The notes beneath the pieces are model-generated. The model ran no database searches. It was given only the letters and a program-made list of their open reading frames with translations, and was not told the DNA's origin. A stretch of DNA of 44,295 bases from Escherichia phage GeorgBuechner, in the sequence record MZ501070; one strand, 5' to 3'. The first letter of the stretch is position 1. Each line of letters starts with the position of its first letter. Position numbers and translations under genes: made by a program. Of the stretch, positions 1,949-44,212 are shown in pieces.

Positions 1949-3469
1949 ATGACCGTTAACGTTGACAACCAGCACCCGCTCTATGCGCGCATCGCGCCAG
2001 AGTGGAAAATGATCCGTGATTGTGTGGCAGGGGAGCGCGCCGTGAAGGCGTGCGGTCCTTTGTACCTGCCACACCCAGCCAGTGGCGACAACACTGACCC
2101 GAAAGCACGGGCGCGGTATAAGGCGTACAAGCAACGCGCTGTATTCCTGAACGCCACCGCCCGCACACTTAACGCACTGTTAGGCGTTGCCTTTGCTAAA
2201 CCGGTAAGTCTGGACCTTTCTGGGGCGATGGCTGACCTGATTGACGACGTAGACGGTAGCGGTATGCCGCTGCCGCAACTCCTGCGCGGTGCTATGTCGG
2301 AAGTGCTGCAATCTGGCCGCGCGGGCTTTATGGTTGACTACGACCGCCAGGCGCATTTTGACGAACTGGGTAACGTAGTGCCGCAGACCGCCGCTGAAAT
2401 GGCGGCGCACCGCCCGCTTATCCGCCTGTACACGGCAGAACAGATCATCAATTGGCGGCAAACCCACGGGGTCGATACGCTAATTGTGCTGAAGGAAACG
2501 GACGAAATCAGCACTGAAGACCCGGACGACTTCGCAAACCACGAAGTAACAATCTGGACCGAGCTTCGCATGATTAACGGTGCGGCACACGCCCGCCGCT
2601 GGTTTTATAACGCTGACACGTCCGAGGTGCAAATGGACTTGCCGCGTGGATTTACCCGCACCGACCTTGTGCCGCTGGTGGATGCCGCCGGTAAAGCGCT
2701 GACACAGCTTCCGTTTTGCTGGTGTGGCGCGGTGGACAACAACGCAACGCCTGACGCCGCCCCGCTGGCGGATATCGCATCCATCAACATTAAGCACTAC
2801 AACGCCGAAGCGGACGTCGCCGAGATTGCGCACATCGTGGGTCAACCTACCCTGGTGGCAATGGGCTTGACTCAATCATGGGCAGACAAGAACCTGAAGG
2901 GCGGCATTGCCCTCGGTGCAACTAAGGGCGTCATTCTGGGTCAGAACATGGACGCTAAACTGATTCAGGCCGAGGAGCGCAACTTGTCTGTTGCACTGTG
3001 TGAGCGCCGCGAATTGCAAATGGCTAAACTGGGCGCGGCCCTGGTCGAGAAGGGGACCGCACCTAAGACGGCAACCGAGGCGGCCTATGATGCGCAGACT
3101 GATAACAGTATCCTGTCGCTTATTGCCGGTAACGTTGAGAAGGCTTTCAACCGTGCGCTGCAAATCGTCCAGCTATTCACGGGTGACACCGCCGACCAGC
3201 GTGTGACGCTGAATAAGTTCTACACCGAGATCACGGTTGATGCGCAGCTTATGACCGCGATGATGTCTGGTGTGCAGACTGGTACGGTCCGCCTGGCTGA
3301 TTTCATCAAGTGGATGATGGCGCAGGGCGTTATCGACGACTCGCAAACCGTCGAGCAGGTGGAAGACGAATTGCGAAATCAGAATCCATTGCCTCAAATG
3401 TCCCCTGATGCGGTAGAATCTACCGAAGAAGACCCGGACAAGGTAGCGGACAATGGCGAAGACAATTAA
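1949..3469 (+). CDS. Portal protein
   Basis: 506 aa ORF between terminase and head morphogenesis gene; RBS AAGGAAAA upstream; acidic C-terminal tail typical of portals. Confidence 0.8.
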   Translation: MTVNVDNQHPLYARIAPEWKMIRDCVAGERAVKACGPLYLPHPASGDNTDPKARARYKAYKQRAVFLNATARTLNALLGVAFAKPVSLDLSGAMADLIDDVDGSGMPLPQLLRGAMSEVLQSGRAGFMVDYDRQAHFDELGNVVPQTAAEMAAHRPLIRLYTAEQIINWRQTHGVDTLIVLKETDEISTEDPDDFANHEVTIWTELRMINGAAHARRWFYNADTSEVQMDLPRGFTRTDLVPLVDAAGKALTQLPFCWCGAVDNNATPDAAPLADIASINIKHYNAEADVAEIAHIVGQPTLVAMGLTQSWADKNLKGGIALGATKGVILGQNMDAKLIQAEERNLSVALCERRELQMAKLGAALVEKGTAPKTATEAAYDAQTDNSILSLIAGNVEKAFNRALQIVQLFTGDTADQRVTLNKFYTEITVDAQLMTAMMSGVQTGTVRLADFIKWMMAQGVIDDSQTVEQVEDELRNQNPLPQMSPDAVESTEEDPDKVADNGEDN

Positions 3470-4556
3470 TCAACATTTGGCGGATCGAATGATTCGCCGT
3501 CACATCTTCACCCAGCGCCTGAGCAATGACCAGGCGCGGAGGGTGCTGGCTATGTGGGAGAAGTTCCGGCCCACATTACTGGGTAAGCTGACCGAGTTAC
3601 TTGATGGCAAAAAGTCCATGAACAACAAGGCACTTACCACACTGTTAACGCAACTCGACAAGACCGTAAAAACGGAACTGCGCGCCGAGTTTAAAGTGCT
3701 GGCGGAGAGCCTGCAGGAGTTCGCCGACACCGAGGCTGATTATCTCGCTGACACACTAACGGCAGCGATCCAGCCCGCTGTCGCCGTACCCGCTGTTGAA
3801 GTAGTTGGCGTTGTTACCGGCGCGCAGATTGCAGCGACGGCAATGAAAAACCCGTTCCAGGGTAATACTATGATGCAATGGCCTGATTCCCTTTCCGAGT
3901 GGACCAGGACGCAGATCGGCAATCAGGTGCGCGCCGGATTCATCCAGGGCAAGCCAACGATGGAAATTATCGCGGACGTGAGGCGCGCGCTCGGCGGGCG
4001 TAGTGCGCAAGCAATCGCAAGCGTTGTTAAGTCCGCGGTCAACCACTATGCGGCGACCGCCCGCGAATTAATGGTAAAAGCTAATGACGATATTCTCGAA
4101 GGTCGCCAATGGTTGGCTACATTGGACACTCATACTTCCCCTATGTGCCAGCTACGCGATCGCCTGTTTTATCCTGTTGACGTCACTCCCGACACCAAAG
4201 GCAAGCGCGGCGGGAAAGTGGTGGCGGGATCACAATATGGCGCTGGTCCGGGCAAGCTGCATTATTGCTGCCGTTCGACGGAGACGTGGAAAGTCAAAGG
4301 TATGGAAGATTGGCCCAGTGGTAAGCGTCCGGCACTGAAGGCTGACGCGGGCCGATTGCTTAGTGAGCAGGTCGACGCGCAAACTGATTTCTTCTCATGG
4401 GTGCAGCGCCAGCCGCGCCATATTCTGGAGGAATTATATGGGGTGCAGCGCGCCGATCAGATTATGCGCGGCGTGAAAGTGCCGAAGATGTTCACCGATA
4501 CTGGCGAACTAATGACTATTGCGCAGCTTAAAAACCGGGGGCTATGGCGTGATTAA
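3453..4556 (+). CDS. Head morphogenesis protein (Mu F / SPP1 gp7-like)
   Basis: 367 aa; contains ATLDTHTSPMCQLRD resembling the conserved Mu-F domain core; overlaps portal stop. Confidence 0.8.
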   Translation: MAKTINQHLADRMIRRHIFTQRLSNDQARRVLAMWEKFRPTLLGKLTELLDGKKSMNNKALTTLLTQLDKTVKTELRAEFKVLAESLQEFADTEADYLADTLTAAIQPAVAVPAVEVVGVVTGAQIAATAMKNPFQGNTMMQWPDSLSEWTRTQIGNQVRAGFIQGKPTMEIIADVRRALGGRSAQAIASVVKSAVNHYAATARELMVKANDDILEGRQWLATLDTHTSPMCQLRDRLFYPVDVTPDTKGKRGGKVVAGSQYGAGPGKLHYCCRSTETWKVKGMEDWPSGKRPALKADAGRLLSEQVDAQTDFFSWVQRQPRHILEELYGVQRADQIMRGVKVPKMFTDTGELMTIAQLKNRGLWRD

Positions 4557-4857
4557 GTATGCAGCGATTGGGTTGGTAATAGGTCTGGCGGTTGGATTCT
4601 GGCAGGGTGACTCCTACCGCACTGGCGTTGAGGCGAGAGCGGCGCAAGAAGCGCAAGCGAAAGCCCAACGGCAGCAAACTAAGGTTGTCGAGGGGGCCGT
4701 GCAGGCAGAACAGGCCCGCGACGTGGAATACCGGACTATCACGAAAGAGGTTGTAAAATATGTTACGCGTCCTAACCGTCCTGATTGCCGTTTTGATGAT
4801 GAGCGCGTGCGGATCAAGCAACGTGCCATCGACGCCGCTAACCGAGTCGGTTTATAG
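4519..4857 (+). CDS. i-spanin (Rz-like) candidate; start could be ATG 4519 or GTG 4549
   Basis: N-terminal TM segment IKYAAIGLVIGLAVGFW followed by Q/A/E-rich predicted coiled coil and C-terminal Cys; contains an embedded +1-frame lipoprotein ORF. Confidence 0.55.
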   Translation: MRSLKTGGYGVIKYAAIGLVIGLAVGFWQGDSYRTGVEARAAQEAQAKAQRQQTKVVEGAVQAEQARDVEYRTITKEVVKYVTRPNRPDCRFDDERVRIKQRAIDAANRVGL

Positions 4858-4990
4858 ACCTCCTTGCACCTTTGAGAATGCCTCGGCGGACCCAGACGAA
4901 GACTTGCTGGTTGATATTAAAAATATGGAGTGTGGTGCGAAGCTGAGGGCGCAAGTGCTGGATTTGCAGAAAATAATTCGGGGGCCGTGA
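4760..4990 (+). CDS. o-spanin (Rz1-like outer membrane lipoprotein) candidate, starts inside the i-spanin ORF in the +1 frame
   Basis: Signal peptide MLRVLTVLIAVLMMSAC with lipobox-like MSAC; +2 residue Gly; short Pro-containing mature part with Cys; stop lies in a terminator hairpin. Confidence 0.55.
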   Translation: MLRVLTVLIAVLMMSACGSSNVPSTPLTESVYRPPCTFENASADPDEDLLVDIKNMECGAKLRAQVLDLQKIIRGP

Positions 4991-5003
4991 TGGCCCCTTT
5001 TCG
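4980..5003. terminator. Stem-loop terminator between late head operon segment and the convergent minus-strand gene
   Basis: GGGGGCC-gtgat-GGCCCC followed by TTTTCGTT on plus strand. Confidence 0.55.
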
Positions 5004-5768
5004 TTAGCGCGGAATACCGCAAATCTCGTTTAGTGTTTTCACGTCCAGCGCCACCGCCGTGGACTTCGGCTTGTCCGGGTAAGGAATGAACTGTTCCACT
5101 TCAGGCCACGCCTTGATCAGCTTCTTATCGGTATTGTGCATATCCAGCACGCCGGTAACAGTTAGTTTGAACGCGTCATACTTAGCACGCAACTCACGGC
5201 GGGCCTTGTCGTTACGGTCCAGGCGCTTACAGAAATCATGGTCCGCCGGGTAGTCTATACGACCGCGTGGTATATAGATCGGCAGCGCTTTCCCGTCGTC
5301 GTCGACTTCGCACACTGACGCTAACAAAATTTCCTCATACCCTGGCACAATATCGCCGAGATCGGGAGACAGTTTATTCATGTATTTATACTCCCAGTAT
5401 CCGCGATGTACTCGGAATCGGTGTCCGTCTCCGCTCAATGACACGGTACGGACGTTTCCACCTGCGTTGATTTCGAAAGTGGCGTCGTAAACGCTGCCTA
5501 TACCATATGGGTTGTCGGCGTCATGTCTATACGTCGCCTTATTGGTGTACACACAGACGCCGTACATCTTCGACGGGTCATCGCCGATTTCTTCAATGCG
5601 CTCACGTAGCTCGGCGAACGTATGAATGCCTTCCGGCATACAGTCCAGCGTAATGGCGTACGCCAGATTTCGAGAGTCCATCATGATTGATTTGGCTTCG
5701 GTCGCGATTTCGTGGTCGCGCAGGATGTTAGCCAGAATCTGGTTTTTAATGTCTTTTGTCAGTCTCAT
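5004..5768 (-). CDS. Hypothetical protein encoded in reverse orientation inside the head gene cluster (moron-like accessory gene)
   Basis: 254 aa from ATG at 5766-5768 (MRLTKDIKNQ...) with SD ACGAGGA; the longer track ORF 5004..6215 is a low-complexity N-terminal extension overlapping the scaffold gene and is rejected; no recognisable motifs. Confidence 0.6.
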   Translation of the reverse strand: MRLTKDIKNQILANILRDHEIATEAKSIMMDSRNLAYAITLDCMPEGIHTFAELRERIEEIGDDPSKMYGVCVYTNKATYRHDADNPYGIGSVYDATFEINAGGNVRTVSLSGDGHRFRVHRGYWEYKYMNKLSPDLGDIVPGYEEILLASVCEVDDDGKALPIYIPRGRIDYPADHDFCKRLDRNDKARRELRAKYDAFKLTVTGVLDMHNTDKKLIKAWPEVEQFIPYPDKPKSTAVALDVKTLNEICGIPR

Positions 5769-21612: not shown

Positions 21613-21634
21613 AGGCCCCGAAAGGGGCCTATTT
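21613..21634. terminator. Bidirectional stem-loop between convergent genes
   Basis: AGGCCCC-gaaa-GGGGCCT; stop codon of the minus-strand lipoprotein gene lies at the edge of the stem. Confidence 0.5.
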
Positions 21635-21847
21635 GCAGGTTGTGCTTTTGAAATGGTCAACTGACACATACTGGAAGTTAAACGGGTATCCCGCCCTGAG
21701 CATTTTGTGGCCGCTAAAATCCGCGACCCCAAACACGGGGACTGAGTAATCCATGCCGCTATTCTGGTACGTCGCGTCGCAGACTTTAGCTGGCATGTTG
21801 GCACAACCGGACAAAAGAACTGCACAAATCATAATTAAAGTTTTCAT
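21629..21847 (-). CDS. Small lipoprotein, candidate receptor-blocking superinfection-exclusion protein (Llp/Cor-like)
   Basis: 72 aa from ATG 21845-21847 with SD AGGGGA; signal peptide MKTLIMICAVLLSGC with lipobox LLSGC; two further Cys in the mature part; convergent with tail genes and adjacent to the fibre gene. Confidence 0.6.
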   Translation of the reverse strand: MKTLIMICAVLLSGCANMPAKVCDATYQNSGMDYSVPVFGVADFSGHKMLRAGYPFNFQYVSVDHFKSTTCK

Positions 21848-21878: not shown

Positions 21879-21906
21879 GTATTACACCGCTCAATCAAGA
21901 ATGCAA
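21879..21906 (-). promoter_or_regulatory. Candidate sigma70-type promoter for the lipoprotein gene
   Basis: Minus strand reads TTGCAT - 16 nt - TAATAC about 30 nt upstream of the ATG; the -35 overlaps an ATTGGTTGCA motif. Confidence 0.35.
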
Positions 21907-21911
21907 CCAAT
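21902..21911. promoter_or_regulatory. TGCAACCAAT motif immediately upstream of the tail fibre SD
   Basis: aTGCAACCAATttACGAGGAtttagctATG; motif 17 nt from the fibre start codon. Confidence 0.5.
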
Positions 21912-21927
21912 TTACGAGGATTTAGCT

Positions 21928-23730
21928 ATGGCAGCGGGTACGCTCTCCGTAACGAACAATAGCAAGGCGGTAGTAGGGGTTGGCACAACGTTTACCGCGT
22001 TCAAGGCTGGCGACTTCTTATCACTGGTGGTGGGGCAAGTGCCTTATACAGTGGCGATCGCGTCCATTGAAAGCGCAACCGCTCTCACGCTAGTGTTGCC
22101 GTTCGATGGCCCTACGGCAACCGGACTTGCCTGGGATGGTATTAATCGCGATACCATGTCACTGGCAACGATGGGCGTTACCGTACAGGCGCAAAAAGCA
22201 TTGCGCTTGATGATTGCAGATGAAAACAACTGGCGTGCAATCTTCGGCGACGCTGAAGAAATCACAGTGACGTTACCTAACGGGCAAGTCATGCAGGGTA
22301 TGTCATGGGGATACCTGTCGGAATTGCTTAAGAACGTAGATCCGGTTGAGATGCGCGACCTCGCAGCGCAAGCCGAAGCATCGAAATCGGCAGCGCAAGG
22401 ATTTCGTAATGAGGCCGAAGGCTTCAAGAACGATACCAATACAATCAAGACGCAGACCAACCAGATTAAGGCGGATACGCAGGCTATCCACGACGCCACC
22501 AATACCATCAAGACGCAGACCAACCAGATTAAGACGGATACGCAGGCCATCAAAGACCAGACGAACCAGATCAAGACTGACACTGGCGTTATGAGGGACG
22601 AGGCCAACACCGCGAAGGCGGACGCGCAAGCTGCCAGCACTGCCGCACAGGAATTCCGCGACCAGGCAGAGGAGTGGGCGCAAAGCGTTAACGCGGATAA
22701 CCTGCTAACCAAATCCGGCAACCTGGCAGGACTTGCGGATAAAACTGAGTCGTGGGCAAACCTTATGCCTGCAGGCCCGCTACGAGTCGGCGGTGACCCC
22801 AATGCGGATCTGGATGCGGCAACTAAGCGTTGGACGTTGGGTTTATTAGACGCAGGCACGGCGAATACGTCGTGGTCGGTAATCAACGGCGACGCCACTA
22901 AACCGCCAGCGGGCACTACGGCAGACGGCGGAAGCATTATATCTGAATATCGTGTAGGTACTTCTGTACATTCGGAAGCAAAGCTGCGCGTCCGTGCGAC
23001 TATCGGCGGTGAGACTTACGCCCGCTTGGCGATCACCAACCTGGAGACGGCGCAGAGTTCGGGCATCGACTTTAACACCAAAGGCGAGATGACCTTGCCG
23101 GGCAAGTTTACGGTGAACAGTCCAGGGTCAGATGTCGTCGGCAGCTTGTCCTTAAGCCGCGGGTCTTACCTGCAATTTGCATTCGAACCGTACTACACCG
23201 TAGCCGAAACCGTGCCGAACGACGTTGTAGGCGGTAGGACGTTCTTCGAACCGGCACTAGTCAAGAGCGGCACTCGATATTTTCGCCTGTTTATGCGACG
23301 TAAGGATGGGAACCGTACCGGCGAAATTATGCTTAACTTCCCGACTACCGTATCGGGGACTATCGCGCTGCAAGGCACATCCGGCCGCGAGTATAAGAAA
23401 GATATTGCCGATGCGGACGCAAGCGAAGCTATGGACCGCATTAACAGCCAGCGCCTTGTTAACTTCGTGTATAAGGATGATGAGCAGGCCCGCCAGCGCT
23501 TCGGTATTATCGCCGAAGAAGCGGAGTTAATTGCGCCGCAGTACGTTAAACACCACGAGTTCCCGATCGAGGATATTCTCGACGAAGACGGCAACAAGAT
23601 CGGGGAGAAGATGACGGACCGCCCATCCATCGACGTTAACCCGATCGTAATGGACTTGATGGGATGTGTTCAATATCTCAATAAGCAGGTGGAGGATTTG
23701 AAGGCCGAGATCGCGGCGTTGAAGAAATAA
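21928..23730 (+). CDS. Tail fibre protein with C-terminal S74-type intramolecular chaperone domain
   Basis: 600 aa from ATG 21928 (track ORF starts at 21901 inside the motif); internal 63 bp tandem repeat encoding NTIKTQTNQIK...; C-terminal GTSGREYKKDIADADASEAMDRINSQRLVNFVYKDD resembles fibre chaperone domains. Confidence 0.8.
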   Translation: MAAGTLSVTNNSKAVVGVGTTFTAFKAGDFLSLVVGQVPYTVAIASIESATALTLVLPFDGPTATGLAWDGINRDTMSLATMGVTVQAQKALRLMIADENNWRAIFGDAEEITVTLPNGQVMQGMSWGYLSELLKNVDPVEMRDLAAQAEASKSAAQGFRNEAEGFKNDTNTIKTQTNQIKADTQAIHDATNTIKTQTNQIKTDTQAIKDQTNQIKTDTGVMRDEANTAKADAQAASTAAQEFRDQAEEWAQSVNADNLLTKSGNLAGLADKTESWANLMPAGPLRVGGDPNADLDAATKRWTLGLLDAGTANTSWSVINGDATKPPAGTTADGGSIISEYRVGTSVHSEAKLRVRATIGGETYARLAITNLETAQSSGIDFNTKGEMTLPGKFTVNSPGSDVVGSLSLSRGSYLQFAFEPYYTVAETVPNDVVGGRTFFEPALVKSGTRYFRLFMRRKDGNRTGEIMLNFPTTVSGTIALQGTSGREYKKDIADADASEAMDRINSQRLVNFVYKDDEQARQRFGIIAEEAELIAPQYVKHHEFPIEDILDEDGNKIGEKMTDRPSIDVNPIVMDLMGCVQYLNKQVEDLKAEIAALKK

Positions 23731-41343: not shown

Positions 41344-41634
41344 ATGGATAAGCTAAACGAGTGGTTATTCGCCCTCGCGTGTCTGGCTGGCGGCTTCGTA
41401 GGCGCACGCATTCATGGCGAGGCTACGAAAGGGCCGCTAAACTTCGTTTTATATATCGTAGTTGGCTTCCTGTGTGCCATATTTGGTGCGCCAGCTATCG
41501 CCGAGTGGGCAGGCTTATCTGGCGAGCGCACTGTCGCCGGTTTGGGCTTCGTAACTGCAATCTTCTGGATGCCAATAGCCGCCCGGATCAGGGAGACTAT
41601 TGAGTCGTTCCGACTTCCGGGGGGCGCAAAATGA
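41344..41634 (+). CDS. Holin-like membrane protein (three predicted TM segments)
   Basis: 96 aa; hydrophobic stretches WLFALACLAGGFVGA, FVLYIVVGFLCAIFGAPAIA, GLGFVTAIFWMPIAA; positioned two genes upstream of endolysin. Confidence 0.45.
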   Translation: MDKLNEWLFALACLAGGFVGARIHGEATKGPLNFVLYIVVGFLCAIFGAPAIAEWAGLSGERTVAGLGFVTAIFWMPIAARIRETIESFRLPGGAK

Positions 41635-41876
41635 TTATCTCCGTCCTGTTGTTTGTTATCATAGGGGCTTCGTCCCTGTTTAACGTGTATGCGCCGTCCG
41701 TCCAGGATGGCATTTTAGGCCGGGTGTTATATCTGCTAACGGCGATGATCTGCGTTATCGGATTGTTGCAAACAGGAGACGTATCTGACACCACCTGGAC
41801 CGCGTTAATCTGGCTGTTTGCATTGCGCACGCTGCGTAATGCTGTTTTGAATGGGGTAAAACATGCGATTCAGTGA
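41631..41876 (+). CDS. Holin/antiholin-like membrane protein
   Basis: 81 aa; TM stretches MIISVLLFVIIGASSLF, VLYLLTAMICVIGLL, WTALIWLFAL; overlaps endolysin start. Confidence 0.45.
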   Translation: MIISVLLFVIIGASSLFNVYAPSVQDGILGRVLYLLTAMICVIGLLQTGDVSDTTWTALIWLFALRTLRNAVLNGVKHAIQ

Positions 41877-42354
41877 CAACGGTCTACGATTTACGGCAGC
41901 ATGGGAGACGTTTAGCCCGGTGCCGTATTTCGCGACTAAGAAAGAGCAGGCCCGCGGCCTGTACACCTGGGGTTATGGTCACACTGGCACTAACCCGCCT
42001 CGAAGCATTACCCGCGCGGAAGCGCTGGAGCTACTTAAGCGCGATGTGGCGTATGCTGAGGACTGGGTGAACAAATACGCGCATAAGAGCATTAACCAGG
42101 CGCAATTCGACGCGCTGGTGGACCTGGTTATCAATGCAGGTCAAGGTCCGATCGTACCGGACCATATTGCCAATGACTTCGACGACGCGGTGCGCTTGGG
42201 CGACTGGGCAAAGGTCCGTGCTACGCTGCCACAGTTCCGCAAGCAAGGCGGGGAAGTGCTTAAGGGTCTGGTCCGTCGAGCAATCGGCAGACAGGCTTTA
42301 TTCGATGGAAAGCAGTGGGACGTTGCCGAGAAGATCGGACGTAACGCAGCATAA
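41863..42354 (+). CDS. Endolysin (GH24 lysozyme/muramidase type)
   Basis: 163 aa; N-terminal Glu region (AAWETFSP) and TWGYGHTG segment typical of T4/lambda-type lysozymes; no N-terminal signal-anchor. Confidence 0.8.
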   Translation: MRFSDNGLRFTAAWETFSPVPYFATKKEQARGLYTWGYGHTGTNPPRSITRAEALELLKRDVAYAEDWVNKYAHKSINQAQFDALVDLVINAGQGPIVPDHIANDFDDAVRLGDWAKVRATLPQFRKQGGEVLKGLVRRAIGRQALFDGKQWDVAEKIGRNAA

Positions 42355-42370
42355 TACGGGGTAACACAGT

Positions 42371-42784
42371 ATGTTAAGAAGTATTCTTGATCATAACGCC
42401 GACGCGATTGCTGCGCTGGCTAAAACAGAAGACCCAGGCGCTCGCGCTATCATCGCGGACACTATCAGCCACGCGGGGGTCTTCGACGCGAAGCTGCCTA
42501 GCCCGCCGGAAAGTAAGCCGGTGACAAGTGCCACCGTAACAATCACACCGGAATCCGCCGCAGTTGGTGCGAAGGCCGCCGCTTCTGTTGCCGTCTTGCC
42601 ATCCGACGCGACTAACAAGGCAGGGAAGTGGGTGCCGTCGAATCCGGCCTGTGCGGCAATCGATCAGACTACCGGCGAAATCACAGCCCAAACGGCAGGT
42701 AGCGCCCACATCTTTTGGGTGGCCTCCGATGGTAGCGGGGTGATAGCGTCCGCCATCTTCACCGTGACGGAAGCAGGAGAATAA
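42371..42784 (+). CDS. Hypothetical protein with possible Ig-like (Big_2-type) domain
   Basis: 137 aa; Ala/Thr/Ser-rich beta-like C-terminal half ATVTITPESAAVGAKAAASVAVLP...; followed by terminator. Confidence 0.4.
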   Translation: MLRSILDHNADAIAALAKTEDPGARAIIADTISHAGVFDAKLPSPPESKPVTSATVTITPESAAVGAKAAASVAVLPSDATNKAGKWVPSNPACAAIDQTTGEITAQTAGSAHIFWVASDGSGVIASAIFTVTEAGE

Positions 42785-42788
42785 AACC

Positions 42789-42816
42789 ACAAGCCCGGTT
42801 AATTCCGGGCTTTTTA
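42789..42816 (+). terminator. Rho-independent terminator after the lysis-region operon
   Basis: AAGCCCGG-ttaatt-CCGGGCTT followed by TTTATT. Confidence 0.7.
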
Positions 42817-44176: not shown

Positions 44177-44212
44177 AAGCCACCCAGCCTGCCGATTTGG
44201 TGGGCTTTTTTG
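44177..44212 (+). terminator. Probable terminator after the last gene of the window
   Basis: Imperfect stem AAGCCACCC ... GGTGGGCTT followed by TTTTTT. Confidence 0.5.

Follow-up and report, generated by a model that had tools for sequence, protein, structure and literature searches.

Two overlapping genes on the + strand of Escherichia phage GeorgBuechner (sequence record MZ501070) lie directly downstream of a head-morphogenesis gene and very probably encode the two-component spanin (i-spanin plus o-spanin) of the phage's lysis system. Positions are given in the window, the whole stretch of 44,295 nucleotides (nt) that was analyzed. GeorgBuechner is a Dhillonvirus coliphage of the BASEL collection, and the window is almost certainly its entire genome. 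The i-spanin gene occupies 4549–4857 and opens with GTG, while the o-spanin gene occupies 4760–4990, opens with ATG, and is read in the +1 frame relative to the i-spanin gene. The pair is already annotated in GeorgBuechner and catalogued in the literature, and as a finding it is ordinary.

The mechanically derived open reading frame (ORF) for the upstream protein runs from TTG 4519 to 4857 (112 amino acids [aa]), and an earlier examination of the letters alone, here called the sequence-only reading, had described this ORF as starting with an N-terminal transmembrane (TM) helix. The ORF and the helix both stand, but the start does not. In an alignment of 16 Dhillonvirus genomes (76–97% DNA identity), the comparison set used throughout, TTG 4519 is missing from two loci, being CTC in one (L013) and TCG in the other (L015), and it was ruled out as the i-spanin start because it is not conserved among relatives; databases likewise annotate the GTG. 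GTG 4549 is kept in all 16 genomes, is preceded by GGGGG at a spacing of 7 nt, and corresponds to the GenBank start at 4548 in Oekolampad. This start overlaps the head-morphogenesis gene by 8 nt, up to and including the stop codon of the latter at 4554–4556, confirming that the pair follows that gene as the sequence-only reading had stated. The upstream extension (4519–4548, + strand) falls within the 3′-terminal part of the head-morphogenesis gene, and the translated i-spanin probably does not include it.

At the N terminus of the 102-aa i-spanin is the hydrophobic stretch IKYAAIGLVIGLAVGFW (mean of 2.2 on the Kyte-Doolittle scale over 15 residues), which forms a TM helix at approximately residues 2–19 with Lys3 before the helix, a feature conserved in relatives. 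No second hydrophobic segment was seen in the Kyte-Doolittle profile of the protein. The 82 aa that follow the TM helix are 37% charged, and 54% of them are Ala, Gln, Glu, Lys, or Arg, a composition close to that of the lambda Rz periplasmic domain. Cys80, the single conserved i-spanin Cys, is invariant across the comparison set. An AlphaFold2 (AF2) model placed helices at residues 3–73 and 84–97 and supports a helical periplasmic domain; because its predicted local distance difference test (pLDDT) score was 56, the model was used for secondary structure only and not for a fold search. Dhillonvirus i-spanins occur in two forms, of 102 and 109 aa. The stop codon TAG (4855–4857) is replaced by TGC in 10 of the 16 genomes (L005–L012, L014, and L015), and the longer form gains seven codons (…TATAVQVR) from DNA that also codes for o-spanin residues 33–39. 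Its tail is similar to the AAxVQ tail of Jersey-type i-spanins.

The o-spanin gene is preceded by an AGAGG Shine-Dalgarno sequence 9 nt upstream and encodes a 76-aa prolipoprotein. The precursor begins MLRVLTVLIAVLMMSA/CGSS, with one basic residue, a hydrophobic core, and the lipobox M-S-A/C17 (the slash marks the predicted cleavage site), such that residues 1–16 constitute the signal peptide. It passes, with Cys17, a simplified PROSITE PS51257-style lipobox rule. The residue at +2 is Gly rather than the inner-membrane retention Asp, which is compatible with outer-membrane sorting by the +2 rule. The mature protein comprises 60 aa, 10% of them Pro, in agreement with the lipobox MSAC and the short Pro-containing mature part that had been ascribed to the +1-frame ORF at 4760–4990. 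Cys17 and the two periplasmic residues Cys36 and Cys58 are invariant in 16/16 Dhillonvirus genomes and in Jersey/Kaguna-type homologues, and the gene is exactly 76 codons long in every member of the set. In an AF2 model (pLDDT 76), a disordered linker joins the signal helix to a C-terminal helix at residues 45–73. When this model was searched with Foldseek against BFVD, the SO-1 orthologue was the only significant match; an annotated Erwinia o-spanin was returned at E=1.8, which is not significant.

The two genes share a dual-coding overlap of 98 nt (4760–4857, + strand), in which the C terminus of the i-spanin is read in frame 0 and the signal peptide and linker of the o-spanin in frame +1; the o-spanin gene extends 133 nt past the i-spanin stop. 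A lipobox pattern alone proves nothing in this setting, since a six-frame scan of the window with the permissive rule gives 13 matching start sites. Neither ORF is interrupted in any of the 16 Dhillonvirus genomes. Diversity at codon positions 1/2/3 was 0.083/0.041/0.233 in the part coding only for the i-spanin, read in its own frame, and 0.093/0.044/0.261 in the part coding only for the o-spanin (4858–4987), read in the o-spanin frame. In the overlap, of which 95 nt were scored, i-frame third-position diversity fell to 0.139, a drop that coding in both frames would predict. At the level of nucleotide diversity, this pattern demonstrates purifying selection in both frames. The intact ORFs, the third-position variation, and the invariant Cys residues in 16 genomes therefore make the pair more than chance. 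A 651-nt query around the pair matched 150 phage records, each over at least 80% of its length; nearly all are Escherichia/Shigella Dhillonvirus (HK578-like siphoviruses), at 80–96% identity.

The assignment of these genes as spanins draws on several lines of annotation and homology. The two products are identical to the GeorgBuechner entries QXV79453.1 (“i-spanin”) and QXV79454.1 (“o-spanin”), and the same names are used in GenBank for Oekolampad, KarlBarth, and PaulFeyerabend. Among PHROGs, the i-spanin matched phrog_2536 (7e-36) and the o-spanin matched phrog_5672 (2.1e-24) and phrog_1267 (2.1e-11), all three annotated “Rz-like spanin.” Together with the conservation in 16/16 genomes, these names and families uphold a spanin pair as the best reading of the two overlapping ORFs, as first proposed. 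Four of the features by which the two-component class is recognized (Summer 2007; Kongari 2018) are present, namely an i-spanin with a single N-terminal TM helix, a lipobox-bearing o-spanin without Asp at +2, adjacent genes, and periplasmic Cys residues. The “Jersey” overlapped i- and o-spanin families include HK578, JL1, SSL-2009a, SO-1, EP23, and EK99P-1 (Kongari et al. 2018, PMC6139136), and the spanin database of those authors was used for annotation by the BASEL authors. Listed members, SO-1 and the HK578-group phages, are 85–95% identical to the GeorgBuechner proteins. Jersey o-spanins have two constant Cys positions, and a shorter Jersey sub-family, from EP23 to SO-1, has two helices joined by a linker (PMC6139136). 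It is this short sub-family that the GeorgBuechner pair resembles in every substantive respect: its members share the overlapped +1 arrangement, the layout of two linker-joined helices, and the o-spanin Cys pair, and the SO-1 pair is 93–95% identical. The long Jersey/Kaguna sub-family differs in having proteins of 128 aa and 87–93 aa and an overlap of ∼155 nt, as compared to 102 aa, 76 aa, and 98 nt. Identity to Jerseyvirus ZCSE9 and to Bas76 (Kagunavirus-like) is 35–40% for the i-spanin and 39–42% for the o-spanin. Alignment with both of these phages reproduced the motifs of the family, EV(V/I)KY..P.R..C.F…RV.(I/L)K.RA…AN in the i-spanin and PPC…DEDL..D..N.EC..LR..V..LQ in the o-spanin.

Independent support for a role in lysis came from more distant relatives. 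A profile search with the i-spanin against 1.84 billion representative proteins identified 62 clusters of relatives of 80–190 aa. One relative, P0070, is encoded in a prophage on a bacterial contig (L021), where two holin genes and then a GH108 endolysin gene immediately precede it and a lipoprotein ORF homologous to the o-spanin (…LSG/C…PPCK…DEDLQADIETAEC…) overlaps it. The locus of a second relative, P0082, follows an endolysin on a contig with P22-family genes (L020), where the DNA order is endolysin, small TM protein, i-spanin, and then an overlapping o-spanin. The P0082 entry itself (L020 3001–3768, GCA_010458925.1) is a spliced gene-call artefact that fuses an endolysin fragment to the i-spanin. 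From the P0070 and P0082 loci it follows that the family holds the canonical cassette position elsewhere: these distant members stand right beside endolysin genes, whereas the GeorgBuechner pair is adjacent to neither holin nor endolysin. Adjacency to an endolysin is usual for spanins but not defining, as T4 lacks it (PMC6139136). Within the window, no other spanin candidate was found, the ORF after the endolysin encoding a Big_2 Ig-like protein by Pfam; no u-spanin-like ORF (a lipobox plus a C-terminal TM helix) was seen; and a six-frame lipobox scan yielded only one other convincing lipoprotein, a Cor homologue.

In the nomenclature of Kongari et al., lambda Rz/Rz1 is “embedded” and P2 is listed under “Overlapped” (PMC6139136). 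The GeorgBuechner pair is accordingly “overlapped” and not “embedded,” because of the 133 nt of o-spanin gene beyond the i-spanin stop; lambda Rz1, in contrast, lies wholly inside Rz. The lambda Rz/Rz1 architecture suggested by the sequence-only reading thus holds as regards overlap but not as regards lambda, the class being that of P2 LysB/LysC. Resemblances to lambda consist of a type II inner-membrane protein paired with an outer-membrane lipoprotein coded in its +1 frame, a charged helical periplasmic domain (37% charged residues vs 34% in Rz), periplasmic Cys residues, and Gly/Thr-type +2 residues compatible with outer-membrane sorting. The lambda pair differs in lying directly after the endolysin gene R and in its proportions: Rz has 153 aa as compared to 102 aa for the i-spanin, with a periplasmic domain of 129 aa vs 82 aa, and mature Rz1 has 41 aa (24% Pro) as compared to 60 aa (10% Pro). 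Neither protein matched PF03245 (Phage_lysis) or PF06085 (Rz1) at Pfam E≤0.1, which places the pair outside those families, and at the sequence level it appears to be a functional analogue of Rz/Rz1 and not a detectable homologue.

P2 LysB/LysC is the usual example of overlapped spanins, and the P2 pair is located in a lysis cassette. Its architecture is that of the GeorgBuechner pair, with an o-spanin gene that begins inside the i-spanin gene and ends past it, but there is no significant sequence similarity (NCBIfam P2_Rz1 scored 12.8 bits vs a cut-off of 27). T4 PseT.3/PseT.2 are similar in combining a short i-spanin (117 aa) with a larger o-spanin that carries a C-terminal helix, and different in having a separated architecture and belonging to another sequence family.

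Several observations weigh against the assignment as spanins. All naming of the family is by prediction (SpaninDataBase and PHROGs), and a literature search for experiments on Jersey/Dhillonvirus spanins yielded annotation-level mentions only. Pfam and NCBIfam scans matched neither protein to any family (Pfam E≤0.1), and homology to lambda Rz/Rz1 went undetected, with hhalign probabilities of 2.4% (Rz) and 5.2% (Rz1). Relative to the lambda proteins, the periplasmic domain of the i-spanin is short and the o-spanin is far poorer in Pro. The i-spanin model is of low confidence at its pLDDT of 56, and the coiled-coil-like periplasmic part of the sequence-only reading is not established. Separately, searching the PDB sequences with the profiles of the two families gave noise only.

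The computational origin of every spanin label for the Jersey-type family leaves room for the proposal that the label is a propagated annotation artefact and that the pair, like the Cor/Llp lipoproteins, serves to mask receptors or to exclude superinfecting phages. The location of the pair away from the endolysin would fit, and exclusion lipoproteins do exist in phages, one of them in the GeorgBuechner genome. However, this Cor homologue already stands next to the tail-fibre genes, where such proteins are usually found, and a TM protein with an overlapping +1 lipoprotein and conserved periplasmic Cys residues is a spanin signature and not that of an exclusion protein. The prophage loci in which distant homologues of the two proteins come immediately after holin-endolysin genes argue in the same direction, and a phage deprived of the pair would be left with nothing to disrupt the outer membrane. 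We therefore consider an exclusion role very improbable. The Cor homologue is a 72-aa lipoprotein (MKTLIMICAVLLSG/C15) encoded at 21629–21847 on the − strand, beside the tail-fibre gene 21901–23730, and was assigned to the Cor superinfection-exclusion family by phrog_1119 (1.5e-27).

That the pair acts in head assembly or in the packaging of DNA, for instance as a membrane anchor for procapsid assembly, is suggested by its position between head-morphogenesis and scaffold genes, which is conserved in Dhillonvirus, Jerseyvirus, and a Kagunavirus-like phage. Such a role is less probable still: capsids are assembled in the cytoplasm, whereas the export and lipidation signals make the greater part of each protein periplasmic, the homologues in canonical lysis cassettes are detached from head genes, and neither protein matches a head-protein family. 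Finally, the notion that only the i-spanin-like ORF is real and that 4760–4990 is a chance frame with a fortuitous lipobox, which could appeal to the 13 permissive lipobox matches (most of them in non-coding frames) and to records that annotate one of the two genes only, is effectively refuted by the concentration of variation in 4858–4987 at the o-frame third position (0.261 vs 0.093 and 0.044), by the 76 codons and invariant Cys17/36/58 in all 16 genomes, by homologous lipoprotein ORFs that accompany the i-spanin in Jerseyvirus and Kagunavirus-like loci (39–42% o-spanin identity for the two phage loci) and in two bacterial contigs, and by the PHROG E-values of the o-spanin (2e-24 and 2e-11).

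For the spanin pair, the lambda Rz/Rz1 paradigm, summarized in PMC6139136, serves as the model from which we infer a mechanism. The i-spanin would enter the inner membrane by its N-terminal helix (N-in, C-out), with the helical domain reaching into the periplasm. The o-spanin precursor would be lipidated at Cys17 and cleaved, with Gly at +2 sending it to the outer membrane, where it would sit in the inner leaflet. Binding between the two proteins is predicted to involve their C-terminal parts and to yield a complex that spans the periplasm, is threaded through the peptidoglycan, and is probably stabilized by homotypic disulfides via i-spanin Cys80 and o-spanin Cys36/Cys58. The peptidoglycan mesh would restrain such complexes until the holins (41344–41876) trigger and the endolysin (41863–42354) degrades the wall, whereupon the freed complexes may disrupt the two membranes or fuse one with the other, so that virions are released. 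Both proteins are probably made from the tail end of a late terS-terL-portal-head-morphogenesis transcript, with the pair probably translationally coupled to the head-morphogenesis gene. Late co-expression with head genes would be compatible with the paradigm, because spanins are inert until the wall is gone.

The gene upstream of the pair (3453–4556, + strand) encodes a head-morphogenesis protein of the SPP1 gp7/Mu F-like type (phrog_241, 8.4e-117). Downstream, a GC-rich hairpin with a T run at 4980–4998, found in a consensus scan, is likely a bidirectional terminator: the 8-bp stem has six GC pairs on the + strand, a mirror site lies on the − strand, and the o-spanin stop codon (4988–4990) falls inside the loop. 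As judged from its sequence, the hairpin likely ends transcription of the unit that runs from terS to the spanins and, from the other side, of the convergent gene 5004–5768, which shares it. This − strand gene lies within the head module, between the spanins and the scaffold gene, and encodes a 254-aa protein (phrog_1965, 6.6e-61) that is without a functional assignment and is named “nucleotide modification associated protein” in SECphi18.

The lysis genes of GeorgBuechner are found near the other end of the record, all on the + strand. Two successive small TM proteins, encoded at 41344–41634 and 41631–41876, both belong to holin PHROGs (phrog_2359/phrog_2508 for the two), and the endolysin gene follows at 41863–42354 (phrog_7; Pfam Phage_lysozyme, 3.5e-21). 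By eye, the endolysin is without a hydrophobic N-terminal segment of the signal-anchor-release type. Directly after it, 42371–42784 (+ strand) encodes the 137-aa Big_2 Ig-like protein (Pfam, 9.7e-09), whose equivalent in SECphi18 is present as two “major tail protein” fragments, and this gene is followed by a strong bidirectional hairpin at 42791–42812.

The sequence-only reading had placed the pair far from the endolysin. The separation was borne out, but a distance of ∼37 kb was not, as the genes are on one strand and ∼6.5 kb apart when the distance is taken through the joined genome ends. The record opens at the small terminase gene, and the last 400 nt of the window joined to the first 400 nt gave one unbroken 800-nt alignment to SECphi18. 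In this circular record, a single strand carries holin, holin, endolysin, Ig-like, phosphoesterase/exonuclease, terS, terL, portal, head-morphogenesis, and spanin genes in that order. With the ends of the window joined as they are in SECphi18, the i-spanin start comes 6489 nt downstream of the endolysin stop, and the large apparent distance is due mostly to where the linear record is opened. Terminator-like hairpins between the endolysin and the spanins, at 42791–42812 and 44186–44206, are consensus matches only.

The spanins are set apart from the holin and endolysin genes, and this separation is real. T4 pseT.3/pseT.2 are likewise away from the holin and endolysin genes (PMC6139136), and in Jerseyvirus SeF1 the same PHROG families are at genes 9/10 with the lysis genes at 63–65 (2022 paper, PMC9409062). 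Comparison of gene order in related phages, which the sequence-only reading had named as a check, bore out the slot between head morphogenesis and scaffold as common to Dhillonvirus, Jerseyvirus, and a Kagunavirus-like phage; a literature search for comment on the head-module position of these spanins found annotation-level mentions only. In Salmonella phage ZCSE9 (L016), a gene at 666–1316 that is annotated “endolysin (amidase)” separates the portal gene from the head-morphogenesis gene; it runs on the opposite strand, ∼2 kb from the spanins. We regard it as doubtful that functional selection, and not historical accident, keeps the pair at its fixed place as the last genes of the packaging/head-morphogenesis operon. 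One possible reason for such a place would be that translational coupling with the head-morphogenesis gene ties spanin dosage to head-gene expression, independent of holin and endolysin regulation.

The significance of the pair beyond correct annotation is small. Lysis of Gram-negative hosts requires spanins for its final step, and with the head-module location of the pair known, the phage is not mislabelled as “spanin-less.” Because the spanin pair sits by the head-morphogenesis gene, edits near that gene in the engineering of Dhillonvirus could cripple lysis.

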